Assembly (NCBI GenBank): GCA_040377305.1
Contig: JBEIPA010000001.1
Location: 108,807 to 172,806 of the forward strand
DNA: 64,000 nt
Direction: 5' to 3'
Source of the DNA: Flavobacteriales bacterium
GTDB lineage: Bacteria > Bacteroidota > Bacteroidia > Palsa-965
This document shows, in pieces, positions 29,572 to 53,700 of the stretch. Within the stretch, counting starts at the first letter, position 1; every line of letters begins with the position of its first letter. The notes beneath the pieces were generated by a model. The model was not told the DNA's origin, ran no database searches, and saw nothing but the letters and a program-made list of their open reading frames with translations. The position numbers and the translations under genes are program-made.

Positions 29572-29653
29572 GATTGGGGGTGATAATACTATTGTGTGGT
29601 ATGAGCACAGCAATCTGGGTTGATTGAGAAATTAGAAAGCGAATTTGTGATAA

Positions 29654-30079: not shown

Positions 30080-30174
30080 ATCCTCTGTTTCGGGTGCAAA
30101 GGACTGAATGAAGGCATCCGTTTCAGATAGGTTGGATCATGAAACTCTTGTAGTGGTTTGTACTACAAAACGGA

Positions 30175-30792: not shown

Positions 30793-33107
30793 AAGTGCTG
30801 ATTGTCTTTTCCTTGTAATGGTATTTCCAACGCAATCGTAACTCCACGTTGTTCTTCATTCTTGATAATTAAATTCCCGTGCAACATTAACGCGCGTTCT
30901 TTCATACCAACCAACCCCAGGGATTTTTTGTTCTTAGCTTCTTCAAGATTCAAACCAACACCGTTGTCCTTTACAATCAGTGATAAGACTCCGTTTTTTT
31001 CTTCAAGAGCAGTTTCAACAAGTGTTGCCTGACTATGCCTTGCGACGTTGGTAAGTGCTTCCTGATAAACCCTGAATATGTTAGTGACAATATTTATATC
31101 GAAGTCGCTGTCTTCTACTTCAGTCTTGAATCGCGATCTGATACCCGTTCGCTTTTCGAATTCCTGAGTTTGCCATTCGAGGGCGGCAATCAATCCCAGA
31201 TCGTCCAATATCCCGGGACGAAGTTCGGATGCAATTCGTCGTACACTTTGTATTGTGTCATCTATTAGCAAAATCATGTTTGATAGTCTTTCCTGAACCA
31301 TAACCTCACTTTGATTCTTGCTTTTTAGAATCCAGGATGTGTCCATCTTTAAGCCTGTCAATTGCTGACCCAATTCGTCATGGATTTCACGTGCAATGCG
31401 GGTTCTCTCCTCTTCTCGAACACGCTGCAAATGTCCAGTGAGTTCCTTCAACTGATCATACGATGCTTTCAACTCCTCTTCTGCCTTCAGTTTTTCGGTA
31501 ATATCATTTAGCATCACCAAAGAAGCACGTGTTCCATTATAATCTATCAAGTGACCCGTAATATCGAGAAACATCACTTCGCCACTCTTCTTCTTATGCC
31601 GCCATACTTTTTTGTGAACTCTACCGTACTGCTCCTCTGTCGTGATCACTTCCTCAAGTGCTGCGACATCCTCCAGGGGGCGGATGTCCTTAATCGTTAA
31701 GTTCAAAAATTCATCTCTTGTATAACCATACTTTAACAAAACTTCTTCATTGCAATCAATTATCTGCGTCGTTTTAAAATTCCAAATAAACATCGGTGAC
31801 GGATTATTCTCGAAGAGATTTTTATAATCCTTTTCACTTTGAATAATCTTGAGTTGCGCCTGTTTGCGTTCAGTTAGATCCTGACAAGTACCCAATGCTC
31901 GTACGGGATTTCCAAGCGGATCATAAAAAATCTTCCACCGCTCCTCTACATACTTTATAGCGCCAGACGGACTCACAGCCCGATGTTCGACAACATGCAA
32001 GAAATGTGATCCGATTGATTCCTTAAACGCATGATCAACCATCTCACGATCCAACGGGTGAACATAGTCGAGAAAATTAGGATGTGAATGCTTAAAGTCC
32101 ACGGGATCGATCTCAAAAATTTTGTAGGTCTCCAACGACCACGTCACTTCCATGGTTGAAAGGTTAGTTTCCCAACTACCAACCTTCGCTAAAGCTTGCG
32201 CTTCAATCAGTCTCGCTTCACTGACTTGCAACATCCTGGTTTTTTCTTCAACCAGTTTGTTCAGCTTCAAAGGCTGCCTTGCAAGATACCAGGCAAAGAT
32301 GCCGCCCACCAGTGAGAGAAGAAACCCAAGAATAGAAATGGCTAAGACTCCTAAAAATGCTTTTTTGTTTTTCGACATTACATGCAACTTCCACTCACCA
32401 TCTGGGATTTCAATTACAACTGACTGACCAGATTCAAACGATCTCGATTCAGGTAAAAAGTATTCTTCCTTTAATGTGGTTGGATTAACTTTTGACAATT
32501 GATACACGAATTCATTGCCCGGGAGCGTATCAATACCTGCGGCCTTCAAAAGTGTGGATATCTTAATAAGAACCGCAGCGAAGCCCTGAAACTCATTGTT
32601 AATGAAAATAGGGAGTCGACCAACGACCGCAACTCCTCCCTGCTTCAATTCGAATGGACCTGCAAAATAAAGCGACTTCATATCTATCGCCTTGTACGCC
32701 TCCTGGTTACGCAAGGAATCTTCAAGGATATTATAACCAATAGCTGCTTCATTTCCCTGTAACGGATAGACATTGGTTATTTCCCCTCCCTGGGTTAATT
32801 CAAGTGCATCGATAAATTTGTTCGATTGCAAAATGCGCTTCGCAATGGAGTCGAAATTTTTGGGAACTCCATATTCCTCCACAACAAACTTCAATGTTTG
32901 CACTGCAGCAAGATCGTAGCTCAATGCAGTTTGCAACCTATCCTTTACCGAATTTATCTCCCGAAGAATCTGATTGTGCTTTTCCTCTTTGACGATCAAG
33001 TACCGCTGATAGGATAGAAACTGAGTTAAGCCCGCGATTAATAAAAAAACGATCAGTCCCGTTAAGCGAGGAGTTTTGCTGCTTGAAGTAGTAGTGTTCG
33101 CTTTCAT
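30789..33107 (-). CDS. sensor histidine kinase (HisKA_3/NarX-type) with periplasmic sensing domain, TM segments and PAS domains
   Basis: 772 aa. H-box REIHDELGQQLTGLKMD, then an HATPase_c segment. Two TM helices flank a ~250-aa extracytoplasmic domain. Confidence 0.8.
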   Translation of the reverse strand: MKANTTTSSSKTPRLTGLIVFLLIAGLTQFLSYQRYLIVKEEKHNQILREINSVKDRLQTALSYDLAAVQTLKFVVEEYGVPKNFDSIAKRILQSNKFIDALELTQGGEITNVYPLQGNEAAIGYNILEDSLRNQEAYKAIDMKSLYFAGPFELKQGGVAVVGRLPIFINNEFQGFAAVLIKISTLLKAAGIDTLPGNEFVYQLSKVNPTTLKEEYFLPESRSFESGQSVVIEIPDGEWKLHVMSKNKKAFLGVLAISILGFLLSLVGGIFAWYLARQPLKLNKLVEEKTRMLQVSEARLIEAQALAKVGSWETNLSTMEVTWSLETYKIFEIDPVDFKHSHPNFLDYVHPLDREMVDHAFKESIGSHFLHVVEHRAVSPSGAIKYVEERWKIFYDPLGNPVRALGTCQDLTERKQAQLKIIQSEKDYKNLFENNPSPMFIWNFKTTQIIDCNEEVLLKYGYTRDEFLNLTIKDIRPLEDVAALEEVITTEEQYGRVHKKVWRHKKKSGEVMFLDITGHLIDYNGTRASLVMLNDITEKLKAEEELKASYDQLKELTGHLQRVREEERTRIAREIHDELGQQLTGLKMDTSWILKSKNQSEVMVQERLSNMILLIDDTIQSVRRIASELRPGILDDLGLIAALEWQTQEFEKRTGIRSRFKTEVEDSDFDINIVTNIFRVYQEALTNVARHSQATLVETALEEKNGVLSLIVKDNGVGLNLEEAKNKKSLGLVGMKERALMLHGNLIIKNEEQRGVTIALEIPLQGKDNQHL

Positions 33108-37525: not shown

Positions 37526-38116
37526 ATGAAGGACATGGTACCCATAGCAACGACAATGGCCGCAGAGCAAAACAGGCTGCTTGAAGAAACAGTACAGCGC
37601 GAAAGACGCCGTTTGCTCGAGTTCATACGAAAAAGAATTCCGCAGGAGGAAGATCCGGAAGACGTGCTTCAGGATGTATTCACTGAATTAACGGAAGCTT
37701 TCAGAATGGAACGGGTCATCGACCGTGTGTCGGGCTGGGTATATCGTGTTGCCAGAAACAAAATCGCAGATCTTTTCAGGAGACGGAGAACAGAGTCGTT
37801 GGAAGCACGATACGAAAAAGAATTTGGCGATGGAGAAGAAGGCTTAGGCTTAAACGACTTGTTGCCTGACCCGTCGGCAGGTCCGGAAGCTGAATATGCA
37901 CGCCGTGTTATTATGAGTGAGTTGATGCTTGCACTTGATGAATTACCGGAAGAACAGCGTTGGGTTTTCTGGGAAAATGAAATCGAAGAACGTCCTTTCC
38001 GTGAGCTCGCGGAAGAGGCTGGAGTGTCGCTCAACACATTACTTTCAAGAAAACGATATGCTGTTTTGTTTCTACGAGAACGTTTGCGCGGTCTGTATGA
38101 AGAGCTCGGCAACTAA
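37526..38116 (+). CDS. ECF (sigma-70 group IV) RNA polymerase sigma factor
   Basis: Region 2 is DVLQDVFTELTEAF...WVYRVARNKIADLFRRR. Region 4 is RELAEEAGVSLNTLLSRKRYAVLFLRERL. Confidence 0.85.
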   Translation: MKDMVPIATTMAAEQNRLLEETVQRERRRLLEFIRKRIPQEEDPEDVLQDVFTELTEAFRMERVIDRVSGWVYRVARNKIADLFRRRRTESLEARYEKEFGDGEEGLGLNDLLPDPSAGPEAEYARRVIMSELMLALDELPEEQRWVFWENEIEERPFRELAEEAGVSLNTLLSRKRYAVLFLRERLRGLYEELGN

Positions 38117-38273: not shown

Positions 38274-38666
38274 ATGAAATGGTTTTTGAGATGTATAGCA
38301 GCCGTAGTGGGATTCGCTGCACTCGCATTCGCGCTCGCGTGGATAACGATGTTGCTCTGGAACTGGTTGGTTCCTGGACTGTTCGGCGGTCCTGAAATCA
38401 GGTACCTCGAAGCTGCAGGATTAATGATTCTCGGTAGACTGCTCGTGGGTGGATTCAAAAGTGGAGGTGGGCATTGCGGTCACGGTGGTAAATGGGGACA
38501 TGGCGGACACGGTTACTGGAAACGTCGCTGGGAAGACAAGATGGCGAACATGACTCCGGAAGAAAAGGAGAAGTTCAAAATGGGAATGAACAAGTGCGGT
38601 GGTTGGGGACGTTGGAATGATTGTGAAACTGAGACGCCGAAGGCGGAGACGAACAATACGCAATAG
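38274..38666 (+). CDS. small membrane protein with His/Gly/Cys-rich tail (putative metal-binding; possible ECF partner)
   Basis: Two N-terminal TM helices, then GGGHCGHGGKWGHGGHGYW...NKCGGWGRWNDCE. Confidence 0.5.
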   Translation: MKWFLRCIAAVVGFAALAFALAWITMLLWNWLVPGLFGGPEIRYLEAAGLMILGRLLVGGFKSGGGHCGHGGKWGHGGHGYWKRRWEDKMANMTPEEKEKFKMGMNKCGGWGRWNDCETETPKAETNNTQ

Positions 38667-38710
38667 TCAATACGCAATGCGCAGTCACTAATCTGAGACT
38701 GGAATTAAAA

Positions 38711-38750
38711 GAAAAAGGTTCGAGAGTCAAATCTTCGAACCTTTTTCTTT
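38711..38750. terminator. bidirectional rho-independent terminator
   Basis: AAAAAGGTTCGAG-n9-TTCGAACCTTTTT flanked by A-rich and T-rich runs, between convergent genes. Confidence 0.7.
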
Positions 38751-38761
38751 TTGCGCTTTGG

Positions 38762-40270
38762 CTATTGCGTATTGCTCATTGGATCGCGCTTGCGCGAAAG
38801 TGCAAACATCACAAAAGCCAACGTTATCAACGATACAAAAAACGTAAGCATGCTGCTGTTTGCTTCCGATGTTTGTTCAGGTTCAAAATCCCCGAACGGA
38901 ATGATGCTTCCCTGTTTCGAGCTCTGGTGTTTTTTGTCGAGATACTGATCGAACTCTTTCGGATAATCGTAATGCGTGGTGATATCGCGACCAGTGAGCC
39001 ACTGATACGTGTATAATTCATTCCAACGACGCTTACCCAGTTCCACCAGATACTCTTGTCCTTTTTCGCAGGTGTAATCCGTACTGTACGGCGGGTTCGT
39101 GAGAATATATCGTCCCTGGAATCGCACCTTATTTGCAGTTTCCTGAAATAACAAATCCTGTGGAAAATGTTCGCGATCATACGTGAGGTGCAGACGTGTG
39201 AAGTACACGAAGCCTTCGTACGTTTTAGCTTGCGTGTGATAGTCCGTGCTTTTTAGTTCAAGCCAATCTACACCCGCATCTTTCAGATCAGTTACAACAG
39301 GTGGATCACCAACGCACGGATCACAGAATTGATTTTGCGTTGGAGAAACATCCCAACCGTATTCGAGGAAAACGGTATTCTTTCCCTCGCGACTCCATGC
39401 TTTGTTGTAGAGATCACGATAAAATTCACCGAACTCGTTGCGAACAAACAGCGGCACTTTAAAGTCGGTTGGAATAAGCGAAGTGCGATAGTTTGTTGTT
39501 TCGATGCGTCCAACTTTGGAGTACATGTACACAACAAGATCCTGTACGCCGTTTGCGTTTGCCATTCCCAGGCGAATCGGCAACATGAATTTTGGTGAGG
39601 TGTATGTAATCTGTAGTGGCTTCAATGGCACAGCTCCAGCCGCGGTGTAATTTTCGAGATTCACTTTCGCCACGAAAAACTTCATGTTCGTTTTGATGTA
39701 CGGATCGAGAACTTCTTTTGCACCGACCGGCATTTTATAACCGTTGTCAATGAGCCATTCTTCTAATCCACCAGATTCAAGTGCAGAAAGAATAAGAATA
39801 TCATATTCACCAACGGTGTATTTCGCTTCCACGGTTACGCCGTAGGATTTTTCCTCCATCGGTGCCGCATTTCCATCGCTGTAACCATAAGCTGCAGATC
39901 TGGTTTTCTTAGCCCCGTAGTGTGGTTTGTATTTCGGAGGAGTGTAACATGGATTCTGATCGTAGTACTCCACCAGACGTGGTGAAGAATACAAATCAAG
40001 TTTATCGAACAACGCGCGCTCTGCAACTTTGATATCGCCTTCCTGCAATACCACCGGAACCGGAACGACCATTGCAAAATCCTTCACGTCGCCTTCAAAA
40101 TCACTCGACATGGTTACGGTTTGCTTATCACCATTCTTCGCAATGATAACCTGCGATGTTTTGTTGAATAGTTTGATGTCTGCTTTTGCAACATAAAATC
40201 CGCAGAAGCTGTAGCCGATGTTGCTTGTGAACACTATAGCTGCGAGAGTGAGGATGAGCGTCTTTTTCAT
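38762..40270 (-). CDS. tandem paralogue 1 of 4: secreted protein with C-terminal TM anchor, unknown function (tentatively DUF2330-like)
   Basis: 502 aa. Signal peptide, SFCGFYVAKAD, VVPVPVVL, KFMLPIRLGMANANGVQDL and QFCDPCVGDPP conserved with the other three copies. The C-terminal segment FFVSLITLAFVMFALSRKR is a TM helix with a basic tail. Confidence 0.85.
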   Translation of the reverse strand: MKKTLILTLAAIVFTSNIGYSFCGFYVAKADIKLFNKTSQVIIAKNGDKQTVTMSSDFEGDVKDFAMVVPVPVVLQEGDIKVAERALFDKLDLYSSPRLVEYYDQNPCYTPPKYKPHYGAKKTRSAAYGYSDGNAAPMEEKSYGVTVEAKYTVGEYDILILSALESGGLEEWLIDNGYKMPVGAKEVLDPYIKTNMKFFVAKVNLENYTAAGAVPLKPLQITYTSPKFMLPIRLGMANANGVQDLVVYMYSKVGRIETTNYRTSLIPTDFKVPLFVRNEFGEFYRDLYNKAWSREGKNTVFLEYGWDVSPTQNQFCDPCVGDPPVVTDLKDAGVDWLELKSTDYHTQAKTYEGFVYFTRLHLTYDREHFPQDLLFQETANKVRFQGRYILTNPPYSTDYTCEKGQEYLVELGKRRWNELYTYQWLTGRDITTHYDYPKEFDQYLDKKHQSSKQGSIIPFGDFEPEQTSEANSSMLTFFVSLITLAFVMFALSRKRDPMSNTQ

Positions 40271-40372
40271 TCGGCGGTCGGGTTTATGATATGATGATAG
40301 AATGATCGGATGATAGGATAGGTCGAGTCAAATATTCACTACACTCTATCATTCAATCATCCCACAATCTTA
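40271..40372 (-). promoter_or_regulatory. conserved inter-paralogue element: upstream arm GATGATTGAATGATAG plus about four tandem ATCATNNN octamers ending ~10 nt before the start codon
   Basis: Gene-sense reading: ...GGGATGATTGAATGATAGAG...CCTATCCTATCATCCGATCATTCTATCATCATATCATAAACC-ATG. Confidence 0.5.
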
Positions 40373-41875
40373 TCACTGATTCGGTACTGTTTCTTTTAGC
40401 TTGCGCTTACGCGAAAGAGCAAACATCACTCCTGCAAATGCAAGTACTGAAGTGAAAAATGTAATCATATTGCTTTCCGATTTCGTGGCATGCTCGGGTG
40501 TGAAGTTCTCCAAATCAACCAAGGCTCCCTGTTTCTTCGGAGCGCCGCCGGTTAGAAACTGATCGTATTCTTTCGGATAATCTGCATGCGATGTGATATC
40601 GCGACCCGTGAGCCACTGATAGGTGTACAATTCATTCCAGCGACGTTTCCCGAGATCCTTGATGTAAGTCTGTCCTTCTGCACACGACAAATCTCCGCTG
40701 GCCGGATGCGTGATGATGTAGCGGCCCTGAAACTTTTCTTTGTTCGCCGTTTCCTGAAACAACAAATCCTGCGGAAAGTGCGCACGATCATATTTCAAAT
40801 GCATGCGCGTGAAGAAAACATTACCTGCATACGTTCTTGCTTGTGTGTGGTAGTCCTGAGTTGCCAGTGTAAGCCAATCTACTCCTGCTTCTTTCAGATC
40901 AGTTACCATTGGAGGATCGCCCACACACGGATCACAAAACTGGGTTTGATTCGGAGAAACTTCCCACGCGTATTCGAGGAACACGGTGTTCTTTCCTTCG
41001 CGTGTCCAGGCTTTGTCGTAGAGATCCCGATAAAATTCGCCGAATTCATTCTGCACAAACAGTGGTACTTTGAAATCGGTTGGAATGAGTGAAGTGCGAT
41101 AATTGGTTGTTTCGATTCTTCCGATTTTCGAATACATGTAAATCACGAGATCCTGTACACCATTTGCGTTTGCCATCCCCAGTCGGATTGGCAACATAAA
41201 TTTTGGCGATGTGTAAGTAATTTGAAGCGGATCGAGATCAACCGAACCTTTATTGGCGAACTTCTCGAGATTCACTTTACACACAAAAAACTTCATGTTC
41301 GTTTTGATGTACGGATCCAAAACTTCTTTTGCACCAACAGGCATTTTGTAACCGTTGGCGTTGAGCCACGTTTCAAGTCCTCCCGATTCTTTCGCCGACA
41401 AAATCAAAATGTCATACGTTCCGATCTGGTACTGCGCTTCAACCGTAACTCCGAGCGTATCTGCAGCATAACCAAAGTTCATCATCGGTGCTGCATCGAA
41501 AGAAACTTCACTCAGAAGTACTCCTTCATTGTAATACTCAGGTTCCACGTAACAGGGAGTCTGATCGTAATAAGAAACCAATCGTGGAGATGAATAATCT
41601 TCCAGTTTTCCGAAGATGCTTTGATTCACCGTTCGGATATCTTTCTCCTCCAGCACAACCGGAACTGGAACGACCATGGCAAAGTCTTTCACCTCTCCTT
41701 CAAAATCACTCGACATCGTAACGGTTTGCTTGTCGCCATTCTTTGCTATAATTACCTGTGAAGTCTTGTTGAACAATTTCACATCAGCTTTCGCCACGTA
41801 AAATCCGCAGAAACTGTAGCCTATGTTGCTGGTGAACACTATGGCAGCTAGAGTAAGTATGAGTACTTTCTTCAT
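40373..41875 (-). CDS. tandem paralogue 2 of 4 (same family)
   Basis: 500 aa. Near-identical scaffold to 41975-43477 except for the cassette segments. Confidence 0.85.
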   Translation of the reverse strand: MKKVLILTLAAIVFTSNIGYSFCGFYVAKADVKLFNKTSQVIIAKNGDKQTVTMSSDFEGEVKDFAMVVPVPVVLEEKDIRTVNQSIFGKLEDYSSPRLVSYYDQTPCYVEPEYYNEGVLLSEVSFDAAPMMNFGYAADTLGVTVEAQYQIGTYDILILSAKESGGLETWLNANGYKMPVGAKEVLDPYIKTNMKFFVCKVNLEKFANKGSVDLDPLQITYTSPKFMLPIRLGMANANGVQDLVIYMYSKIGRIETTNYRTSLIPTDFKVPLFVQNEFGEFYRDLYDKAWTREGKNTVFLEYAWEVSPNQTQFCDPCVGDPPMVTDLKEAGVDWLTLATQDYHTQARTYAGNVFFTRMHLKYDRAHFPQDLLFQETANKEKFQGRYIITHPASGDLSCAEGQTYIKDLGKRRWNELYTYQWLTGRDITSHADYPKEYDQFLTGGAPKKQGALVDLENFTPEHATKSESNMITFFTSVLAFAGVMFALSRKRKLKETVPNQ

Positions 41876-41974
41876 GACGTAAGTTTATGATAGGATGATA
41901 GAATGATCGGATGATTGGATAGGTCGGGTGATCGTACTAACTCCATCCTATCATTCAATCATCTGATAATCCCA
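41876..41974 (-). promoter_or_regulatory. conserved inter-paralogue element (copy 2)
   Basis: ...CCTATCCAATCATCCGATCATTCTATCATCCTATCATAAACTTACGTC-ATG, with the upstream inverted partner GATGATTGAATGATAGG. Confidence 0.5.
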
Positions 41975-43477
41975 TCATGAATTCGGCACTGTTTGTTCCT
42001 TTGATTTCCGCTTACGCGATAAAGCAAACATTACTCCGGCAAACGCAAGAACAGAAGTAAAGAAACTAATCATGTTGCTTTCCGATTTCGTTGCATGTTC
42101 CGGTATGAATTCCTCAGGTGTCAAGAATGAACCTTGTTTCTTCGCCGCACCACCCGTTAAATACCGATCGAACTCCTTCGGATAATCGTAATGCGCAGTA
42201 ATATCGCGACCAGTTAGCCACTGATAGGTATAGAGTTCATTCCAACGGCGCTTTCCAAGATCCTTGATATACGTTTGCCCTTCTGCACAAGAAAGATCTC
42301 CGCTTGCCGGATAGGTGATAATGTAACGACCCTGAAACTTTTCCTTGTTCGCTGTTTCCTGGAATAACAAATCCTGCGGGAAGTGTGCGCGATCATACGT
42401 GAGGTGCAAACGCGTGAAGAACACATTACCTGCGTATGTTCTCGCTTGCGTGTGGTAATCCTGAGTCGCCAGTGTAAGCCAATCTACTCCGGCTTCTTTC
42501 AGATCAGTTACCATCGGTGGATCACCAACGCACGGATCGCAGAACTGTGTTTGATTCGGAGAAACTTCCCATGCGTATTCGAGAAACACGGTGTTCTTTC
42601 CTTCCCGTCCCCAAGCTTTATTGTAGAGATCGCGATAGAACACACCGAACTCATCTTTCGCAAACAGAGGCACTTTGAAATCGGTTGGGATTAACGAGGT
42701 GCGATAATTAGTCGTCTCGATGCGACCGATCTTTGAATACATGTAGATGATCAAATCCTGAACCCCATTGGCATTCGCCATTCCAAGTCGGATCGGCAAC
42801 ATGAATTTCGGCGACGTGTAAGTAATTTGAAGTGGATCGAGATCAACAGAACCTTTGTTCGCAAATTTTTCAAGATTCACTTTGCAAACAAAGAACTTCA
42901 TATTGGTCTTGATGTACGGATCGAGAACTTCCTTAGCACCAACCGGCATTTTGTATCCGTTGTCGTTGAGCCACGTTTCGAGTCCGCCCGATTCCTTTGC
43001 TGACAAGATGAGAATATCGTACGTGCCGATTTGGTATTGAGCTTCAATAGTTACACCTAAACTTTGAGTTGTAGTCACATTCGCGACACTCATTCTCATC
43101 ATTTCCGGAGCTGCAGCAACCATATCGTAATCGTAATCGTCCCGCTCAACGTAACAAGGTGTTTGATCGTAATACGATACCAATCGTGGAGCGGAATAAT
43201 CTTCCAGTTTTCCGAAGATGCTTTGATTCACTGTGCGAATATCTTTCTCTTCAAGAACTACAGGCACGGGAACAACCATCGCGAAATCTTTTACTTCGCC
43301 TTCGAAGTCGCTCGACATGGTTACTGTTTGCTTATCGCCATTCTTCGCGATAATCACCTGAGACGTTTTGTTGAAGAGCTTTACATCCGATTTCGCAACG
43401 TAGAAACCACAGAAGCTGTAGCCCATATTGCTGGTGAATAGGATAGCGGCGAGGGTGACGATAAGTATTTTTTTCAT
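41975..43477 (-). CDS. tandem paralogue 3 of 4 (same family)
   Basis: 500 aa. Confidence 0.85.
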   Translation of the reverse strand: MKKILIVTLAAILFTSNMGYSFCGFYVAKSDVKLFNKTSQVIIAKNGDKQTVTMSSDFEGEVKDFAMVVPVPVVLEEKDIRTVNQSIFGKLEDYSAPRLVSYYDQTPCYVERDDYDYDMVAAAPEMMRMSVANVTTTQSLGVTIEAQYQIGTYDILILSAKESGGLETWLNDNGYKMPVGAKEVLDPYIKTNMKFFVCKVNLEKFANKGSVDLDPLQITYTSPKFMLPIRLGMANANGVQDLIIYMYSKIGRIETTNYRTSLIPTDFKVPLFAKDEFGVFYRDLYNKAWGREGKNTVFLEYAWEVSPNQTQFCDPCVGDPPMVTDLKEAGVDWLTLATQDYHTQARTYAGNVFFTRLHLTYDRAHFPQDLLFQETANKEKFQGRYIITYPASGDLSCAEGQTYIKDLGKRRWNELYTYQWLTGRDITAHYDYPKEFDRYLTGGAAKKQGSFLTPEEFIPEHATKSESNMISFFTSVLAFAGVMFALSRKRKSKEQTVPNS

Positions 43478-43579
43478 GACACTGTAAGTTGATGATGGAA
43501 TGATAGAATTATTGGATGATAGGATGGAACGAAGAACAACATAAACTACATCCTATCATTTAATCATCTGAGCATCCTA
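43478..43579 (-). promoter_or_regulatory. conserved inter-paralogue element (copy 3)
   Basis: Same architecture (…ATCCTATCATTTAATCATC… / …GATGATGGAATGATAGAATTATTGGATGATAGGATGG…). Confidence 0.5.
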
Positions 43580-45088
43580 TCATGTTTGTGAGGTAGTTTG
43601 AGACTTTGCCTTCCGTTTTCGCGATAACGCAAACATCACTCCTGCAAATGCAAGTACAGAAGTGAAGAACGTGATCATATTGCCTTCAGACTTTGTTGCG
43701 TGTTCCGGCACGAAAGACTCGATTGACATGAACGAACCTTGTTTGGTTTTTCCACCGGTTGATTTGATGTGCTGATCATATTCCTTCGGATAGTCGTAGT
43801 GCGCAGTAATGTCGCGACCGGTAAGCCACTGATACGTGTAAAGCTCGTTCCAACGGCGCTTACCAAGCTCCTTCACATAAGTCTGTCCCTTTTCGCACGA
43901 GAAATCTCCGCTTGCCGGATGAGTAATGATGTAACGACCCTGAAATTTTTCTTTGTTCGCTGTTTCCTGGAACAACAAATCCTGCGGGAAGTGCGCGCGA
44001 TCATACGTAAGATGCATACGTGTAAAGAACACATTGCCTGCGTACGTTCTCGCTTGTGTATGATAATCCTGGCTCGCAAGTTCAAGCCAATCAACGCCAG
44101 CTTCTTTCAGGTCAGTTACCATTGGAGGATCGCCAACGCACGGATCACAAAACTGCGTTTGATTCGGAGAAACTTCCCACGCATACTCGAGGAATACGGT
44201 ATTCTTTCCTTCGCGGCCCCAAGCTTTGTTGTACAGGTCGCGGTAGAATTCGCCAAACTCATTCTGAACAAACAACGGAACTTTAAAATCGGTTGGAATC
44301 AAAGACGTGCGATAGTTTGTTGTTTCGATACGACCGATCTTCGAATACATGTAAATGATCAAATCCTGAACTCCATTCGCATTTGCCATTCCGAGTCGAA
44401 TCGGCAACATGAACTTCGGTGATGCATACGTAATCTGAAGTGGATCGAGATCAACGGAACCTTTGTTTGCGAATTTTTCCAGATTCACTTTACACACGAA
44501 GAATTTCATGTTCGTTTTGATGTACGGATCGAGCACTTCTTTAGCGCCCACCGGCATTTTGTATCCGTTGTCGTTGAGCCACATCTCTAATCCGCCCGAT
44601 TCTTTCGCTGATAAAATCAGGATGTCATAAGTTCCAATTTGGTATTGCGCTTCTACAGTTACCTGGTAGTCGTCAGCCAACTCCTTGCTTACGCTTTTCA
44701 TTTCCATTCTGTCGATAGACGCTCCCGCAGCCATAGGATAGTTGTAATACTCCGGTTCTACGTAACAGGGGTTCTCATCGTAATAAGAAACGAGTCGCGG
44801 GGCTGAGTAGTCATCAAGTTTGGCGAAGATGCTCGCTTGCACAGTTCGTATGTCTTTCTCTTCGAGAACTACCGGAACAGGAACGACCATTGCAAAATCC
44901 TTCACGTCGCCCTCGAAGTCGCTCGACATGGTAACGGTTTGCTTCTCGCCATTCTTCGCGATAATAACCTGCGATGATTTATTGAAAAGTTTCACGTCTG
45001 CTTTTGCAACATAAAATCCGCAGAAGCTATAGCCCATGTTGCTGGTGAACACAATGGCTGCGAGAGTGAGTATCAGTACTTTTTTCAT
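43580..45088 (-). CDS. tandem paralogue 4 of 4 (same family)
   Basis: 502 aa. Confidence 0.85.
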   Translation of the reverse strand: MKKVLILTLAAIVFTSNMGYSFCGFYVAKADVKLFNKSSQVIIAKNGEKQTVTMSSDFEGDVKDFAMVVPVPVVLEEKDIRTVQASIFAKLDDYSAPRLVSYYDENPCYVEPEYYNYPMAAGASIDRMEMKSVSKELADDYQVTVEAQYQIGTYDILILSAKESGGLEMWLNDNGYKMPVGAKEVLDPYIKTNMKFFVCKVNLEKFANKGSVDLDPLQITYASPKFMLPIRLGMANANGVQDLIIYMYSKIGRIETTNYRTSLIPTDFKVPLFVQNEFGEFYRDLYNKAWGREGKNTVFLEYAWEVSPNQTQFCDPCVGDPPMVTDLKEAGVDWLELASQDYHTQARTYAGNVFFTRMHLTYDRAHFPQDLLFQETANKEKFQGRYIITHPASGDFSCEKGQTYVKELGKRRWNELYTYQWLTGRDITAHYDYPKEYDQHIKSTGGKTKQGSFMSIESFVPEHATKSEGNMITFFTSVLAFAGVMFALSRKRKAKSQTTSQT

Positions 45089-45209
45089 GACCCTTTAGTT
45101 TTATGATCGAATGATTCAATGATTTGATGATCGGATTGGATACGGTACAACAGAAACTCCATCCTATCAATCTATAATCATATCATGCTAATTATTCGTG
45201 GTATTGAGT
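45089..45209 (-). promoter_or_regulatory. conserved element upstream of first paralogue (copy 4)
   Basis: Gene-sense: ...ATCCAATCCGATCATCAAATCATTGAATCATTCGATCATAAAACTAAAGGGTC-ATG. Confidence 0.5.
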
Positions 45210-46073
45210 TTATTTAGACCAGGAGAATTTATCTCCTTTGAAAATTTTATCGAGCACAGGAACGAGTGGTGACAAGAAGAACAATGCCCACACTGGAGGC
45301 GCAGAATACACCCACCATTTCGTTGCCATGTAGTATGCCAGAATGCCAACTCCAACAGCCCATATCAATCGTGCTTTTTGTGAAGCAGGAGTCTGAACCG
45401 GATCAGTGATCATGAAGAAGGTGAAGAGCAGCAACGAACCGTTCGTTAATTGATGCGTAAAGAAATCCATCGGCCAACCGAGGTAAAGAATGTTGCGCGC
45501 AAACATTAACCCGAGGAACGTAAGCAAGAATGCAAACGCTGTATCGAGACGTTTAACGCGCAACAGCACAACCAAACCTGTAAGGCCTACAACAAACAAC
45601 AACAAACCGTCACTTCCCCACTGTCCAGGAGAAATCCATGAGTCACCTGTAAGCAGGACTGTTACACAGATTCCAAAGTTTGTTGGATTGAAAATATGTT
45701 TGCCATTATATTTTAAAAAGAACTTGCTTCCGATGGAGAGCACTGCACACAACACGAATGTCCACACACTGTTTGCCTGCATCATCAAACAGATACTCAT
45801 TGCACTTACGAGTGCACTCTTGAGTCCTGTCCAATCTTTCGTCTTGAACTGTATCCAAAGTGCCTGCACTGCGAGACAAGAAAGAATCACGATGTTCACC
45901 CGCATGATTGGGATCGTCCAATCCAACACGAAAATCCCGTACAACAGGAAAGACAGTTGGAACAGAATCTGATAATGGCGGGCATCACTTCGAAACCATT
46001 CGAGAACGTTAGTTACGGGCTTAATCGCCGTTTTTAGGGCGTTTTGGGCGACGGGTAGAGATTGAGTTTCCAT
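45210..46073 (-). CDS. polytopic membrane protein, possibly NqrB/RnfD-like
   Basis: The ATG at 46073 (METQSLPVAQ) is preferred over the longer track ORF. About eight TM helices. The FFMITDPVQTP motif is reminiscent of the Rnf/Nqr D/B subunit signature, but the protein is shorter than canonical members. Confidence 0.35.
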   Translation of the reverse strand: METQSLPVAQNALKTAIKPVTNVLEWFRSDARHYQILFQLSFLLYGIFVLDWTIPIMRVNIVILSCLAVQALWIQFKTKDWTGLKSALVSAMSICLMMQANSVWTFVLCAVLSIGSKFFLKYNGKHIFNPTNFGICVTVLLTGDSWISPGQWGSDGLLLFVVGLTGLVVLLRVKRLDTAFAFLLTFLGLMFARNILYLGWPMDFFTHQLTNGSLLLFTFFMITDPVQTPASQKARLIWAVGVGILAYYMATKWWVYSAPPVWALFFLSPLVPVLDKIFKGDKFSWSK

Positions 46074-46140
46074 TGGATTAGTATTAATTCCGCAAGTAGG
46101 ATGCGGGGCTTTAGCTGATTCCATAAAAGGTACAAAAAAA

Positions 46141-46281
46141 GATGGGAGTCGGGAGATGGGAGACGGGAGTGAAAAGCTGCAGGGCCAACGCGATTGCATT
46201 GGAATCATTGATTTCCAAATTCATGGCGAATAATTAGATGCCGGATATGCGTCTTCCTACTCCCGTCTCCGATCTCCTAAC
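46141..46281. repeat. second inverted pair of the GGAGACGGGAGT 12-mer, in the 5' region of the membrane-protein gene
   Basis: Left arm GATGGGAGTCGGGAGATGGGAGACGGGAGTG. Right arm CTACTCCCGTCTCCGATCTCC. About 85 bp apart. Confidence 0.4.
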
Positions 46282-46749
46282 TCAATACTCGTCTGCTTTC
46301 AACACTTTCTTCACCCGTGAGCCTTCTTCATTGAAGCACTGCACATAATACACGCCGACCGGAAACCCGCGGAAGTCAACCTGGAAAAGCTGATGCGTGT
46401 TTACGAAAAATCCATAGCTGTAGTATTCTTTTCCGAAGCGATCAAACACTTTTACGTAAACCACTCCCGGAACCTTTACCCAGATGTCCATTGTAATTAA
46501 ATCGACTGGGGGATTCGGTGTGTACCAGAAATCTATCGGATCGCAAATGGTGTTGGAGTTCCAGTATGTTAATCCTGCATTGTTCGAAAAGCAATCATTC
46601 TGATAGGTGAATCCATCGCAACCACAAACCGGTTCGTAGCGCGGATCACAATAACCCCCGTATACAACTTGTGTAGAGTCGTAACACCCTTGCGCTTTCG
46701 CAAAATGACATACGACAATCAACAATACCGCAAAAGTCCAACGGATCAT
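46282..46749 (-). CDS. Kazal-type serine-protease-inhibitor domain protein with T9SS C-terminal sorting domain
   Basis: Kazal core CDPRYEPVCGCDGFTYQNDCFSNNAGL...C. The C-terminal Por-tail-like segment is DIWVKVPGVVYVKVFD...GVYYVQC. Signal peptide present. Confidence 0.6.
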   Translation of the reverse strand: MIRWTFAVLLIVVCHFAKAQGCYDSTQVVYGGYCDPRYEPVCGCDGFTYQNDCFSNNAGLTYWNSNTICDPIDFWYTPNPPVDLITMDIWVKVPGVVYVKVFDRFGKEYYSYGFFVNTHQLFQVDFRGFPVGVYYVQCFNEEGSRVKKVLKADEY

Positions 46750-50722: not shown

Positions 50723-53700
50723 CTATTTCTGAAGAATCACTTTCTCGTGCTGCTTCAAATCTCCTGCAGTAATTACGATTGTATATGCACCGTCTGCGAG
50801 TCCTGAAAGATCCAGTTGCGTAACCTGACTTCCGTTCGATCCGCTGTTTTCTTTCTTCGCCATTACAATACGTCCGGTTGCGTCCATCACTTCGTATGTG
50901 ATTCCTTCCGAAGAAGAAGGCGTTACGATCGTGATCAGACTTGTCGTCGGATTCGGGTAAAGCTGAACAGGGAATGACGCATTGTGATCATTCACTCCAT
51001 TCACGATAAGATCTTCGAGGTTCGACTCAGACGTATTGATGTTGCGCGTTGGTGTACAACTCACTTGCCAAACCGTTTGGATACGGTAGCGACATTGCGT
51101 TACGGTAACTGGCGGTGTCCAATCCGTATACACGAAGTTGGTTCCCGGTACAGAGTCAATCACTTCCCAGTTACCCGCGAGTGTTGAATCACGCAGGATG
51201 CGGTAGTAGTCAACAGTCTGCCCTTCATACATCGTCCAGTTGAGGTTTGCTTCTCCACCTACGCCAATACTTGCCTGCATAAACAGTGTGCGGTGGTGGT
51301 TGCTAAGCGGACTTTCATTTCCGCAGCTGTCGATTGCTGAGATCTTGTAACGCTGGAATGTCGTGTTTGGGTTCGCAATCGGAACATAAATGCTGTCAAC
51401 GAACAATGACAGTGAATCGTAATCGACTGTTCCAACAACCTGATATGTGTTTGACGTGATCTCGCGATAGATGCGGAATGAATCAATATCAGTTGCGGTT
51501 GGTTTCTCCCACATGATATTGTTCCAGTTCGAGGGACCATCAACAGTAACCATACAAATGTCAACAGGCGTTACTGCATCCACTGCAAAGTTGAGGAAAG
51601 CTGAATCACCGGATCCGCAACCATTTACACCATATACAACAACAGCACCAGATGAAGCCGATGAAACAAAGTCAACCGTAATGGTATTTGTTCCACTTCC
51701 TGATACAATTGTTGAACCTGCAGGTAAGTTCCAGGTATAAGTAGTCGCGTTCGTGATTGCAGGAACGGTGAATGTTACTCCTGTTGCTGCCGGACATATT
51801 GCAATATTCCCGGGACCGGAAACAGTTCCAGCTCCAACTGGCAATGGATTGACGGTCACTTGCAACGTATCAGCTGCAACTCCAGTTCCGCAGGCATTGT
51901 TTCCGTTCACATATACTGCTCCGCTTTGTGAATTGAGATTAAACGTAACAGTAATTGAATTCGTATTAGCACCTGCTGTTACAATTGCACCCACCGGCAA
52001 GGACCAGATGTAGTCTGTAGCATTTGCTGCAGCAGGGACAGTGAATACAACTGCGGTGTCGCCTTCACATACTGTAGCCGGACCAGAGATTGTCGTCGTT
52101 GTATCAGGCAGTGGATTTACAGTGAGTGTAATTCCAGGCCCCATTGCGCCGTTACCGCAAACGTTCGTACCATAAACCGTAACCGGTCCTGAAGACGCAG
52201 TTGGCGAGAAATCCACAGTGATCGAATTTCCGTTGTCAACTACAATAGTTGCACCAACTGGTAATGTCCAATTGTAGTTCGAAGCGCCTGTGATTGAAGT
52301 AACGCTATACTGCACTCCCGTAGCACCCGCACAAACCGTAGTTGGTCCGGTGATGGCTGTAGAAGAATCAGGGAGTAATCCAACCGTGATTGCAAGGTTA
52401 GCTGAAGTTCCGGTTCCGCATGAATTCACTCCAGAAACCGTAATGTTACCCGAACCTGTTGCGTTTGTAAAATCAGTGGTAATGGAGTTCGTACCCGCAC
52501 CGTTTGTAATCACAACGCCCGGAGGCAATGTCCAGTTGTACGTTGTTGCGTTGAGGATAGACGGAACAGAATAAACCACACCGGTTGTGCCTTCACACAC
52601 GGTTGTGTTTCCGCTGATTGTTCCTGCAACGTCCGGAAGTGGATTCATTGAAATTGTTAATCCTACAGACGAAGATCCTGTTCCGCATGAGTTCGTTCCG
52701 ACAACATCTACCGTTCCACCGGATGCATTTGCAGAGAAATCAACAGTAATGGTTGATGCATTCGGGTTACCAACAATCGTTGCTCCCGGAGGTAATGTCC
52801 AGGTGTACGAAGTTGCATTCGCAATTCCGGATGTGCTGTAAACCACACCTGATTGACCCTGACAAACACTCAATGGTCCACTGATGCTGGATGTTGTACC
52901 TGGAAGCGGAAGCACAGTCACGTTGAACGGAGCTGAAGAAGCACCAACACCACACGTATTTGATCCCTGCACTTGTACAAACCCCGAAGTAGCAACGTTG
53001 CTAAAGTCAACAAGAATATTGTTTGTACCCGAACCGCTGGCAATTGTTGCACCAGAAGGCAACGTCCAATTGTAGCTGGTCGCATTTGCAATTGCAGCCA
53101 CAGAGAACGGAACCAAAGTTTGTCCCTGACACACGGTTGAAGTTCCGGATACAGCACCAGCAGAAGCCGGGTAAGGAGCAATTGTAATGGTGTGAGTCAC
53201 TTGGCTGTTACCTGCAGCGTTATCGGTGATTGCAAGCGTAACTGTAAACGAGCCCGGACCTGTGAACTGAATGTTCGACGGGTTCTGCTGTGTCGATGAA
53301 GATGGATTTGGTGTTGTTGGTCCACTGAACGTCCAAGTCCACGAGGTAATAGTTGTGCTTGGTGCAAACGATTGATCCGTGAACGAGATGTTGTTTATCT
53401 GTGAAGGTGTTGCACAGATTGTTGAAGGTGCCCATGTGAATTGCGCAGTAAGCGGACATGAACCCATGGTGATTATCACGTTATCTGTACTTGGCGCACA
53501 CGTTCCGTTTGTAATTGTCCAACGGAGCGTTACAATATCTCCGGTTGTCAGACCATTCAGTGTTGTGTTCGCTGCGTTGACGTTAGTGATGTTACCATTT
53601 GTGATCGAAGGATCATTGGTTGCAAATACCGACCATTGTCCCGTACCTACAGTAGGCACATTCGCTGCTAGAGTTGCGGTTCCGATACAAATATTCTGAT

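Follow-up and report, generated by a model that had tools for sequence, protein, structure and literature searches.

We analysed a 64,000-nucleotide stretch of DNA from a Flavobacteriales bacterium, referred to here as the window. It contains four minus-strand open reading frames in succession (38762-45088) that encode proteins of 502, 500, 500 and 502 aa, as the original prediction had described (Table 1). All four proteins match DUF2330 (PF10092) end to end, with E-values of 1e-67 to 1e-70 and scores of 228-237 bits (cutoff 24.7), and the family assignment, at first only tentative, is thus correct. Every copy begins with a signal peptide and carries near its C-terminus a hydrophobic helix (residues ~470-490; 470-488 in the structure model, which was made for g2) followed by a basic tail, RKRK or RKRD. 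The conserved sequence blocks quoted in the original prediction are all found in the four proteins.

Table 1. Coordinates of the DUF2330 array, its sub-features and its neighbours in the window
Feature	Position	Strand	Remarks
ECF sigma factor	37526-38116	+	convergent neighbour, context only
Membrane protein, 130 aa	38274-38666	+	Gly/His/Cys-rich segment GGGHCGHGGKWGHGGHGYW; convergent, context only
Intrinsic terminator, strong	38707-38752	-	17-bp stem, then T-run; end of putative operon
g1 (W_4), DUF2330 paralogue 4, 502 aa	38762-40270	-	divergent 'last-copy' lineage
g1 TM	38795-38851	-	
g1 VR2	38852-38950	-	
g1 VR1	39839-39943	-	basic, net charge +3
Intercistronic element copy 4	40271-40372	-	-25.6 kcal/mol, z -2.4
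g2 (W_3), DUF2330 paralogue 3, 500 aa	40373-41875	-	'middle' lineage
g2 TM	40412-40468	-	
g2 VR2	40469-40564	-	
g2 VR1	41450-41548	-	net charge -6
Intercistronic element copy 3	41876-41974	-	best hairpin, -28.7 kcal/mol, z -2.4
g3 (W_2), DUF2330 paralogue 2, 500 aa	41975-43477	-	'middle' lineage
g3 TM	42017-42073	-	
g3 VR2	42074-42169	-	
g3 VR1	43055-43150	-	net charge -4, four Met
Intercistronic element copy 2	43478-43579	-	alignment, fold
g4 (W_1), DUF2330 paralogue 1, 502 aa	43580-45088	-	'first-copy' lineage
g4 TM	43622-43678	-	
g4 VR2	43679-43777	-	
g4 VR1	44663-44761	-	net charge -4
g4 mature N-terminus (probable)	45002-45025	-	FCGFYVAK
Intercistronic element copy 1, upstream of g4	45089-45209	-	GATGAT/ATCAT-rich imperfect hairpin; alignment, fold
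RnfD/NqrB-like polytopic inner-membrane protein	45210-46208	-	conserved DUF2330 partner; PF03116 E 3.8e-14
Kazal-like secreted protein, 155 aa	46282-46749	-	Kazal-like Cys motif; opens putative operon

We read the minus-strand locus as one putative operon of a Kazal-like gene, an RnfD/NqrB-like gene and the four DUF2330 genes, presumably co-transcribed up to the one strong terminator located 3' of g1 (fold -35.2 kcal/mol, z -5.95, equalled by 0 of 200 shuffles). The 155-aa protein encoded by the first gene scores 23.6 bits for Kazal_1 (PF00050, cutoff 21) and weakly, at 18-21 bits and under the cutoff, for the T9SS C-terminal sorting domain Por_Secre_tail; a Kazal-like gene holds the operon-start position in 6 of 80 related loci, all in the closest clade. 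The true start of the RnfD-like gene is probably downstream of 46208, since its homologues are 270-307 aa long. As originally proposed, each DUF2330 copy has its own conserved upstream element of ~100 nt, with pairwise identities of 62-78% compared to ~33% expected at neutral sites (62-72% between copy 1 and the remaining copies). The hairpins between the genes probably work at the mRNA level.

The absence of DGR or shufflon machinery is likewise borne out: a scan of the ORFs from ~19 kb to 64 kb, save the 2420-aa ORF at 50723-57985, turned up no reverse transcriptase, invertase or recombinase. Copper, flavin-transferase or thiol-oxidoreductase genes were not found near the array. On the opposite strand, the pair formed by the ECF sigma factor and the 130-aa membrane protein also adjoins the array in L003-L006 and L009-L012, and an ECF sigma factor is a convergent neighbour in 15 of the 80 loci; we list the pair as context only.

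Membrane topology and the RnfD-like partner

In Bacteroidota, a Sec signal peptide combined with a C-terminal stop-transfer helix and a cytoplasmic RKRK tail points to a protein that resides in the periplasm and is held at the inner membrane, and we predict this topology for the DUF2330 proteins. The signal peptide is probably cleaved after AxA/GYS and directly before F-C-G. This places a Cys at +2 of the mature N-terminus, as in ~117 of 132 cluster representatives, all 10 fusions included; CxxC and the N-terminal Cys are missing from some distant members. The hallmarks of PF10092 are kept here, namely AxA followed by F-C-G-F-Y-V, a loop after a conserved Pro-Cys and a late conserved Cys. Proteins of the Bacteroidota subfamily have a TM helix at the C-terminus, where distant members carry a Trp-rich WWxxxW tail. 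DUF2330 is an uncharacterised bacterial family on which the literature offers no functional or experimental information.

The proteins had been described as surface proteins. Their signal peptide and stop-transfer anchor, the lack of a T9SS C-terminal domain in a Pfam search and of a lipobox on sequence inspection, and a polytopic inner-membrane partner all speak against this description. With such a topology and partner, phage-receptor avoidance and antigenic variation, both suggested earlier, are implausible.

The partner matches A. vinelandii RnfD (8ahx_D, E 3.8e-13) over the C-terminal 130 aa, and has ~14 residues where RnfD has ~83. We take the RnfD stretch shortened here to hold the FMN-threonyl site, and thus take this site to be absent from the RnfD-like protein. 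A Pfam search gave no evident extra or electron-input domain, and no ApbE gene recurs among the neighbours of the loci. In 60 of 80 loci DUF2330 directly follows the RnfD-like gene, and in 15 further loci the two make up one fused polypeptide; fusions counted, they are partners in 75 of 77 evaluable loci. The best 120 homologues of one fusion are all PF03116+PF10092 proteins, and the pairing still holds at 36-42% identity, in one case with the genes overlapping by 4 bp. Tandem DUF2330-DUF2330 fusions also occur, which suggests that copies act together, not exclusively. A model of the RnfD-like/DUF2330 fusion reached a pTM of 0.52, with inter-domain docking modelled without confidence. The RnfD-like protein and DUF2330 are a conserved and widespread two-gene module of uncharacterised chemistry, predicted to sit at the inner membrane.

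A published two-subunit Nqr/Rnf-like complex combines an RnfD-like subunit lacking the flavinylation Thr and carrying a PF00175 cytosolic NAD-binding domain with a membrane-anchored extracytosolic partner that is FMN-binding and NqrC/RnfG-like (bioRxiv 10.1101/2024.03.13.584918). That complex and the module described here are both minimal Rnf/Nqr derivatives that retain a D/B-type subunit as sole polytopic subunit, have lost the flavinylated Thr (presumably so in our module) and have a neighbouring gene for a membrane-anchored extracytosolic partner. Unlike the published case, the RnfD-like protein here has no added domain and its partner is DUF2330, with no FMN_bind match.

Age of the copies and inheritance of the variable loops

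Recurrence of the tandem array in relatives is the exception. DUF2330 is single-copy in 75 of the 80 related loci and multi-copy in 5, with 3, 4 or 7 copies in syntenic relatives; the four-copy array is a lineage-specific amplification of the two-gene module. Overall nucleotide identity among the four copies is 69-80%, with g1 a clear outlier, and the 85-95% originally given for the flanks is reached only in some 20-codon windows. Outside the variable regions, the scaffold shows dN of 0.03-0.14, dS of 1.6-2.6 and omega of 0.02-0.08 at an amino-acid identity of 81-96% among the paralogues. With dS near saturation, the close agreement of the proteins is due to very strong purifying selection, and not to a duplication of recent date. 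Judged by this divergence, with dS at ~1.7, the four copies are old, without significant recent conversion tracts in the window.

In the phylogeny the last copy, g1, forms a clade with L005_3, L003_4 and L004_3 (bootstrap 89-91), and one of these three is its nearest neighbour in all scaffold segments from N to C and in VR1, the exceptions being the signal peptide, VR2 and the TM helix with the tail. g3 groups with g2 and L005_2 (bootstrap 87), and the N-segment, VR1 and VR2 of g4 are nearest to L005_1 and L004_1. At least three DUF2330 lineages, the first, the middle (duplicated again) and the last, predate the split from the sampled relatives.

The predicted blockwise divergence with two variable segments is real. 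VR1 is a loop of 32-35 aa (residues 110-144; 110-141 or 110-144 by copy) with 16-50% amino-acid identity between paralogues, compared to the 81-96% of the scaffold, and VR2 (residues 437-473) lies ahead of the C-terminal membrane helix. By prediction VR1 is exposed and disordered, with pLDDT <50 in two independent models, in line with the exposed loop proposed. The two regions do not share one face, VR2 being no more than the stalk that leads to the membrane anchor. Nor are the cassettes beyond alignment: for every VR1, homology with that of the positional orthologue in related genomes can be recognised, as between VEPEYYNYPMAAGASIDRMEMKSVSKELADDYQ of g4 and VPPVYNNYPMAAGASMDRVEMMSLSKEVSDDYQ of P0393, and the VR1 of g2 has 'DAAPMM' in common with its orthologues P0391, P0392 and L005_2. 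Within the subfamily VR1 is 30-37 aa long, with an entropy of ~3.3 bits and a biased composition, and runs from a Tyr/acidic start through small residues, MxM and an acidic stretch to Y/L-G. We counted 44 MxM motifs in 84 sequences compared to 14.3 +/- 3.4 expected, a statistic inflated by kinship; His is depleted and Met averages 2.6 per loop. Distant DUF2330 members have a VR1 of 17-45 aa with low complexity and widely varying sequence, and a variable loop is a family-wide trait, single-copy genomes included.

The ratio of VR1 dN to scaffold dS is 1.6-1.9 between tandem paralogues (three pairs) and 0.17-0.20 between orthologues (the two pairs with unsaturated dS). Diversifying selection had been proposed, together with swapped or mosaic cassettes. 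Orthologues have instead this low ratio and matching array cassettes, and VR1 types follow array position across genomes (last-copy clade, bootstrap 89-91), diverge gradually at short range and are inherited vertically by position. Gene conversion between copies, also suggested, is present in the relatives L001, L038 and L004, with only a hint of it in the window (p ~0.03-0.07). In L001 the converted tracts lie on either side of VR1, in L038 in the middle of the gene. In relatives conversion homogenises the scaffold and spares VR1, which makes VR1 look like a paralogue-specific specificity loop; from its pattern we read it as a lineage-specific, specificity-determining loop.

Possible functions of the array

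The original prediction was of a surface diversification array, with exposed cassettes shuffled under diversifying or balancing selection by phage or predator avoidance, cell-cell recognition or antigenic variation. Blockwise divergence, an exposed and disordered loop by prediction, and multiple tandem copies would all fit, as would conversion in relatives and a VR1 dN above scaffold dS in tandem paralogues, but the loop is also variable in single-copy genomes, VR1 types are vertical by array position with an orthologue omega of ~0.2, and the old copies of the window have no significant recent conversion tracts. Tandem-domain fusions favour simultaneous use, the array gave zero matches to known defence systems, and topology and partner place it at the inner membrane and periplasm. 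Orthologous arrays of identical cassette content at a ratio well below 1 were what the original prediction itself had named as contrary evidence, and by its own terms the model is largely refuted; we regard it as highly improbable. A neutral reading, in which VR1 and VR2 are unconstrained linkers and the four genes redundant dosage copies without paralogue-specific role, is unlikely. Lineage VR1 types, the charge-reversed last copy among them, are kept in several genomes despite saturated dS, and redundant copies are unlikely to persist intact so long at a scaffold omega of ~0.02. The predicted disorder of both regions, the loose VR1 of distant members and the sufficiency of one copy for most genomes agree with neutrality, while the 30-37 aa length, positional residue pattern and MxM enrichment of VR1, its orthologue ratio and its escape from conversion tracts that homogenise adjacent codons do not.

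DUF2330 could also be a bacterial family structurally related to the baculovirus caspase inhibitor P35, a suicide substrate. It would then form a periplasmic protease trap at the inner membrane, with VR1 as the protease-cleaved bait loop, the Cys near the mature N-terminus helping to hold the acyl-enzyme, and paralogues with unlike loops trapping unlike proteases. We find this improbable. Comparison by hhalign gave a probability of 0.05 both for one P35 sequence and for a P35 profile of 7 members, Pfam returned no P35 match, P35 is absent from the top 50 Foldseek PDB matches, and Foldseek/BFVD returned an E-value of only 0.014 (TM 0.28/0.43). With the Cys at +2, not at a free N-terminus, P35-type native chemical ligation would not apply, and the N-terminal segment is modelled at low confidence. 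P35/P49 proteins (PF02331, MEROPS I50) are cytosolic, viral and 299 aa long, in only 7 sequence clusters, all baculoviral; DUF2330 is by prediction periplasmic, ~450 aa long, tethered to the membrane and paired with an RnfD-like protein, with no detectable sequence or profile similarity. A protease trap would also leave the obligate, often fused partner unexplained, the VR1 of orthologues is under constraint and not in a race, and the Kazal gene occurs in only 6 of 80 loci.

We favour, as a reasonably probable explanation, an inner-membrane module in which an RnfD-like protein is combined with four amplified periplasmic DUF2330 subunits whose VR1 loops confer specificity. The polytopic RnfD-fold subunit, without flavin-attachment loop, would be the membrane component, and DUF2330, exported to the periplasm by its signal peptide and anchored at the membrane by its C-terminal helix, would physically dock on it, with VR2 as a flexible stalk. 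As for the chemistry, the motifs suggest a possible but doubtful scheme in which the invariant mature N-terminus F-C-G-F-Y-V would bind to the RnfD-like protein together with the C-D-P-C loop for thiol redox or soft-metal (Cu(I)-type) chemistry in the periplasm, and the Met-patterned VR1 would pick the ligand or client. Against this scheme stand the depleted His and few Met of VR1, the distant members without CxxC or N-terminal Cys, and the lack of copper, flavin-transferase or thiol-oxidoreductase genes nearby and of an evident electron-input domain on the RnfD-like protein.

ABC importers may have multiple or fused substrate-binding domains. The module resembles them in having one membrane component with several paralogous tethered periplasmic subunits whose differences are concentrated in one region, and in its natural fusions of periplasmic with membrane component and tandem periplasmic domains. 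Without homology to ABC or TRAP systems or transport evidence, the analogy is architectural only. Old tandem duplications have amplified DUF2330 here; in most Bacteroidota it is single-copy or RnfD-fused. The hairpins probably tune how much of each copy is made relative to the others through mRNA processing, stability or attenuation, and the four copies, presumably expressed together, would serve one membrane partner as alternative periplasmic subunits with loop charges of -6, -4, -4 and +3.

The DUF2330 array and its RnfD-like partner

All four consecutive ORFs match the Pfam model DUF2330 (PF10092) with 227.7-236.5 bits against a cutoff of 24.7 (E 1e-67 to 1e-70), so the family guess made tentatively in the original prediction was correct. 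Each protein starts with a Sec-type signal peptide that ends in GYS; the chain continues with F-C-G-F-Y-V-A-K and a domain of ~415 aa, and after a variable stalk come a hydrophobic helix of 19 residues and an RKRK/RKRD tail. We number the copies W_1 to W_4 in the order of transcription and call their two variable segments VR1 and VR2 (the stalk), the rest being the scaffold. Related loci in other genomes are designated L, with a suffix for the DUF2330 copy, and database homologues P.

Features of the array, its surroundings and related loci (window coordinates unless a locus is named)
Feature	Position	Strand	Remarks
Two hybrid PAS/CHASE histidine kinases and a LuxR-type response regulator	27670-33107	minus	~6-11 kb downstream of the array
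ECF sigma factor	37526-38116	plus	convergent neighbour of the array
130-aa membrane protein	38274-38666	plus	Gly/His/Cys-rich segment GGGHCGHGGKWGHGGHGYW; directly after the ECF sigma factor
DUF2330 array	38762-45088	minus	four consecutive ORFs, 502, 500, 500 and 502 aa
W_4 (g1)	38762-40270	minus	last by transcription order
W_1 (g4)	43580-45088	minus	first by transcription order; W_2 is g3 and W_3 is g2
Intercistronic elements	45089-45209, 43478-43579, 41876-41974, 40271-40372	minus	~100 nt, one ahead of each copy
RnfD/NqrB-like membrane protein (PF03116)	45210-46208	minus	332 aa; directly upstream of g4
Kazal-like secreted protein	46282-46749	minus	155 aa; PF00050 23.6 bits, just above cutoff
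Giant ORF	50723-57985	minus	2420 aa; in this position syntenic relatives have a giant protein with FG-GAP, PKD and Laminin_G domains and a T9SS sorting domain
L004_1	L004 8461-9966		orthologue of W_1
L001 spacers	L001 9955-10000, 11468-11513, 12966-13011		46 nt each
L005 spacers	L005 9856-10024, 11483-11605		with stem-loop
DUF2330-DUF2330 fusion	L080 6492-9437

The membrane protein encoded ahead of the array is a divergent but genuine relative of A. vinelandii RnfD (8ahx_D, E 3.8e-13) and retains the FNP, PGxxG and FFMxTDPxT motifs. Its ORF is probably too long at the 5' end, since homologues measure 270-307 aa and similarity to fused forms starts at about residue 71-75. Query positions 178 to 193 (~14 residues) stand opposite 126 to 210 of A. 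vinelandii RnfD (~83 residues), and this spacing indicates that a periplasmic loop of RnfD is absent. We take the missing region to be the Thr-bearing periplasmic loop, the site of the FMN-threonyl in RnfD/NqrB. Whereas canonical Rnf (RnfABCDGE) and Na+-NQR (NqrA-F) comprise a full subunit set with a covalent FMN loop, the window has one D/B-like subunit alone in which that loop is missing; the genes nearby (Kazal-like, DUF2330, ECF sigma and others) include no further Rnf/Nqr subunits.

A scan of species-representative genomes returned at least 587 related stretches across Bacteroidota, and the best 80 loci were analysed. DUF2330 is a single gene in 75 of these 80. The RnfD-like gene lies directly upstream in 60/80, and in 15/80 the two form a single polypeptide of ~764-792 aa joined by a signal-peptide-like helix ending AxA↓FCGFYV. 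Adjacent or fused, the partner is present in 75 of the 77 evaluable loci, and no universally conserved third gene was found in the 80 neighbourhoods. The best 120 database homologues of one fusion are without exception PF03116+PF10092 proteins (120/120). The pairing extends to members 36-42 % identical, in one of which the stop and start codons overlap; around three other distant members no RnfD-like neighbour was found. When five distant members are compared (L090, L092 and L093 versus L089 and L091; n = 5, short contigs), an RnfD-like neighbour occurs only with an F-C-G or M-C-G N-terminus and is missing from those with another residue in place of the Cys (ASGFY, FSGFY) or with two Cys (CCGLY).

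The gene order Kazal-like, RnfD-like, DUF2330 is conserved in syntenic metagenomic relatives with three (L004, L005, L006), four (L003) or seven (L001) copies, and the array is an amplification of the RnfD-like/DUF2330 two-gene module. Tandem DUF2330-DUF2330 fusions, found in L080 and as the proteins P0241 (963 aa) and P0243 (987 aa), suggest joint action of paralogous domains within a single assembly. A model of a natural RnfD-like::DUF2330 fusion reached a pTM of 0.52, with low confidence at the junction.

The closest comparison is a two-subunit Nqr/Rnf-like complex described in 2024, which likewise is minimal and combines an RnfD-like subunit without a flavinylated Thr with a membrane-anchored extracytosolic partner (Meheust/Light; bioRxiv 10.1101/2024.03.13.584918). 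In that complex, however, the RnfD-like subunit bears a C-terminal cytosolic NAD-binding domain (PF00175) and the partner is an NqrC/RnfG-like FMN_bind protein, whereas the window proteins show only PF03116 (membrane protein) and only PF10092 (partners). Having neither an NAD-binding domain nor an FMN-binding partner, the RnfD-like/DUF2330 module is a distinct derivative of the RnfD fold, separate from the 2024 complex.

Family hallmarks and predicted topology

DUF2330 is a family of 4,715 clusters at 50 % identity (E <= 1e-3). About 99 of 132 evaluable cluster representatives carry AxA↓F-C-G-F-[YF] and most others AxA↓M-C-G/T, so that a Cys at +2 of the predicted mature chain is near-universal; it is present in 10/10 RnfD-like::DUF2330 fusions. 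Equally widespread are the Cys preceding VR1 and a late Cys (C398), which may form a structural disulfide with each other. The hallmarks GYS↓FCGFYVAK, PCY with VR1, and C398 are found in all four window proteins and recur in representatives 34-57 % identical; the CxxC motif and the N-terminal Cys are lacking in some distant members. The models give low confidence to the two invariant segments (N-terminus and CDPC loop), which would fit segments that take up their fold only on a partner. Nine distant members (P0382, P0353, P0342, P0320, P0308, P0264, P0367, P0334 and P0316) have no C-terminal TM helix and share a conserved Trp-rich end, for example RPWWEKMW, GRWWDNLW or EKWWGRIW, that may be an interfacial membrane anchor.

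The signal peptide, the C-terminal stop-transfer helix and the basic tail point to a periplasmic DUF2330 domain tethered to the inner membrane, a topology that the architecture of the fusions fits. A search of the DUF2330 proteins for PF18962 and TIGR04183 (Por_Secre_tail) gave no match, and with no C-terminal sorting domain a T9SS cargo was rejected. There is no lipobox Cys at +1 on DUF2330; the residue preceding the Cys is Phe, for which a lipoprotein was rejected, and in relatives the AxA ahead of F-C is a signal peptidase I-type site. The predicted inner-membrane topology, with neither T9SS domain nor lipobox, removes the basis on which the array had been read as surface proteins, phage receptors or a system of antigenic variation. 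On sequence inspection, an A2M-/TED-type internal thioester protein (no CGEQ or Cys-Gln motif) and an RnfG/NqrC-like flavoprotein (no SGAT-type motif, no FMN_bind match) were likewise rejected. The family is not modelled in NCBIfam, solved structures yielded no match in a profile search (best E 0.89), and PADLOC found none for the DUF2330, RnfD-like, Kazal-like or Gly/His-rich proteins.

Age of the copies and inheritance of the variable loop

At the protein level W_4 is 72-75 % identical to the other copies, and W_1 to W_3 are 85-89 % identical among themselves. The divergence is blockwise, as originally described, with identity troughs confined to VR1 (residues 110-141/144) and VR2 (437-473). 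The earlier figure of 85-95 % identity for the DNA flanks was too high, overall nucleotide identity being 69-80 %. Across the scaffold of the window copies dN is 0.03-0.14 and omega 0.02-0.08, estimates limited by synonymous saturation as dS is 1.6-2.6. The window copies are therefore old, and their similarity is kept by very strong purifying selection.

Unsaturated data are provided by related loci. The ratio of VR1 dN to scaffold dS is 0.20 and 0.17 in the orthologue pairs L045/L048 and L039/L058, which speaks against the diversifying selection proposed for VR1. In the tandem-paralogue pairs L001_5/6, L038_1/2 and L004_1/2 the ratio is 1.6-1.9, with the dS of VR1 itself raised too. Sliding windows along L001_5/6 give a dS of 0-0.2 in the first 100 codons, where a 113-nt identical tract lies (reached by 0/300 shuffles), and 0.6-1.0 elsewhere; in L038 the block of low dS spans codons 182-360. 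VR1 remains divergent in both. In these relatives, then, gene conversion occasionally homogenises scaffold segments and spares VR1. The conversion between copies originally thought likely is thus borne out in L001 and L038 and not in the window, where no identical DNA tract between copies survives multiple-testing correction (p 0.03-0.66). Such tests are partly confounded by nucleotide-level constraint, as W_1 and L004_1, orthologues of different genomes, share a 50-nt identical tract at the 5' end (p 0.003), suggesting constraint at the gene 5' end on mRNA structure or translation initiation. The first ~60 codons of this pair have a dS of 0.6-0.9.

Two independent AlphaFold models leave VR1 without secondary structure at a pLDDT below 50 and show VR2 as a stalk of low confidence. 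VR1 is variable throughout the family, single-copy genomes included (entropy ~3.3 bits). Its length is 30-37 aa (median 34) in the Bacteroidota subfamily and 17-45 aa, of low complexity, in distant members. The subfamily loops are enriched in Met (2.7x), Ala (2.1x) and Tyr (2.0x), depleted in Phe, Ile, Leu, Trp and Cys, and laid out in the order Tyr/acidic, small residues, Met, acidic, Y/L-G. The pattern MxM occurs 44 times against 14.3 +/- 3.4 expected from composition (~3x, among related sequences).

The loops follow the position of the copy in the array. The scaffold tree groups W_4, L005_3, L003_4 and L004_3 in a last-copy clade (bootstrap 89-91) that has a basic VR1 in common (TPPKY...GGAKK.RS...KDYG), while first copies share EPEY..YP.A...DYQ and middle copies AAPMM. 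Segment by segment, the nearest neighbours of W_4 are last-copy orthologues in VR1 and in every scaffold segment, and those of W_1 in the N-segment, VR1 and VR2 are L005_1 and L004_1. Between window copies and their closest orthologues VR1 changes by gradual substitution (W_1 and P0393, ~75 % identity). VR1 is thus inherited vertically by array position, and not swapped as a mosaic cassette. On the evidence as a whole VR1 acts like a functional determinant specific to each paralogue; it is not an epitope in a rapid race, nor a linker free to vary.

The absence of a DGR or shufflon, already noted from the sequence, holds across the scanned ORFs (~19-64 kb, except the 2420-aa ORF), which have no RT or recombinase domains. 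No silent donor cassettes were found, all four copies being full-length genes in one probable operon. With no RT or recombinase in the scanned ORFs, no significant tracts and a vertically inherited VR1, programmed diversification by DGR, shufflon or invertible or silent cassettes was rejected, and the claim of a diversification system as a whole is not supported.

Transcript context and possible function

A conserved element upstream of each copy had also been noticed, and the intercistronic elements are indeed 62-78 % mutually identical against ~33 % expected at neutral sites. They fold as long imperfect hairpins of GATGAT/ATCAT units, a type shared with L006. Every spacer between tandem DUF2330 genes contains a stem-loop of lineage-specific sequence; that of L001 is a perfect GC hairpin of 14 bp, near-identical across three spacers whose flanking genes have a dS of 0.4-0.9. 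Rfam gave no match for the elements or elsewhere in the window, which also has no tRNAs, and the stem-loops have no T-run, so they probably act in the processing, stability or attenuation of the mRNA. A strong intrinsic terminator follows the last DUF2330 gene only (z -5.95), suggesting that the array is read as one transcript. A sigma-70 promoter scan, not built for Bacteroidota promoters, found fewer sites than in shuffles.

The Kazal-like gene, whose product has a protease-inhibitor motif of Kazal type and a weak, sub-threshold T9SS sorting domain, precedes the RnfD-like gene and heads the operon in the closest clade only (6/80 loci). An ECF sigma factor is the convergent neighbour in 15 of the 80 loci. 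Together with the Gly/His/Cys-rich membrane protein, which could be a metal-sensing anti-sigma factor, it adjoins the array in L003-L006 and L009-L012; the Chitinophagaceae equivalent consists of an ECF sigma factor, a small membrane protein and a weak LTXXQ/Metal_resist-like protein.

We consider it reasonably probable that the array encodes several old paralogues of one periplasmic subunit, transcribed together and belonging to an RnfD-like/DUF2330 module of the inner membrane, and that each carries its own specificity loop. For the chemistry of the module we tentatively propose thiol-based redox reactions or the handling of soft metals, in conjunction with the RnfD-like subunit. The grounds are all indirect: the partner family has a redox pedigree, the Cys and the CxxC are conserved, the loop is patterned with MxM, and an ECF sigma factor with metal-type small proteins lies nearby. 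That the copies are redundant and their disordered loops junk linkers is unlikely given the behaviour of VR1, and a surface diversification array, for all the blockwise divergence that inspired it, is very improbable in view of the predicted topology and the vertical inheritance of the loops.

Another reading, which we judge improbable, makes DUF2330 a putative bacterial structural and mechanistic relative of baculovirus P35 (PF02331, MEROPS I50). P35 is cleaved at D87 in an exposed reactive-site loop, after which its N-terminal Cys2 protects the caspase thioester (PMC7863939; PMC3252740). DUF2330 would accordingly be a membrane-tethered periplasmic suicide-substrate protease trap with VR1 as a putative bait loop; the near-universal Cys would stabilise the trapped acyl-enzyme, the task of the RnfD-like subunit would be to anchor the trap or recycle it, and tandem arrays would offer baits of different specificities. 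Two parallels are suggestive, namely the Cys where the mature chain begins and the disordered loop ~90-120 residues in. However, the Cys of DUF2330 is at +2, not +1, and the RnfD-like partner is left unexplained. P35 shows no sequence or profile similarity to DUF2330: there is no Pfam P35 match, and hhalign gives a probability of 0.05 against both AcP35 and a 7-sequence P35 profile. Foldseek against the PDB returned weak matches alone, to the N-terminal domain of M1 aminopeptidases, with P35 not among the top 50. Only seven P35 sequence clusters exist, all baculoviral, and no cellular homologues had been described as of 2011 (PMC3252740). A bacterial counterpart to the orphan P35 fold is a possibility raised here, and a P35-like fold of DUF2330 appears undescribed in the searchable literature.

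Returning to the paralogue reading, the DUF2330 family is catalogued and unstudied: searches under DUF2330, PF10092, COG4402 and IPR019283 found no mention in the searchable literature of this large family, whose scaffold is among the most conserved measured here (omega ~0.02). The amplified array, the RnfD-like partner, the hallmark mature N-terminus and the conversion-resistant loop likewise appear undescribed in the searchable literature. They provide a working frame: an obligate RnfD/NqrB-like partner that is often fused and has lost the flavin site, a DUF2330 domain probably in the periplasm, a hallmark Cys where the mature chain begins, and a patterned loop as paralogue-specific determinant. 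This frame makes the function of DUF2330 experimentally approachable in cultured single-copy carriers such as Flavitalea sp. BT771, Ferruginibacter sp. SUN106 and Crocinitomix algicola. Beside the 2024 complex, the RnfD-like/DUF2330 pair is a second minimal two-subunit module based on RnfD, and one of a different kind. More generally, divergent blocks set in the conserved scaffold of tandem paralogues can mean that a disordered loop sub-functionalised long ago, and not that diversification is active, and the locus is a good entry point to a large and very conserved family.
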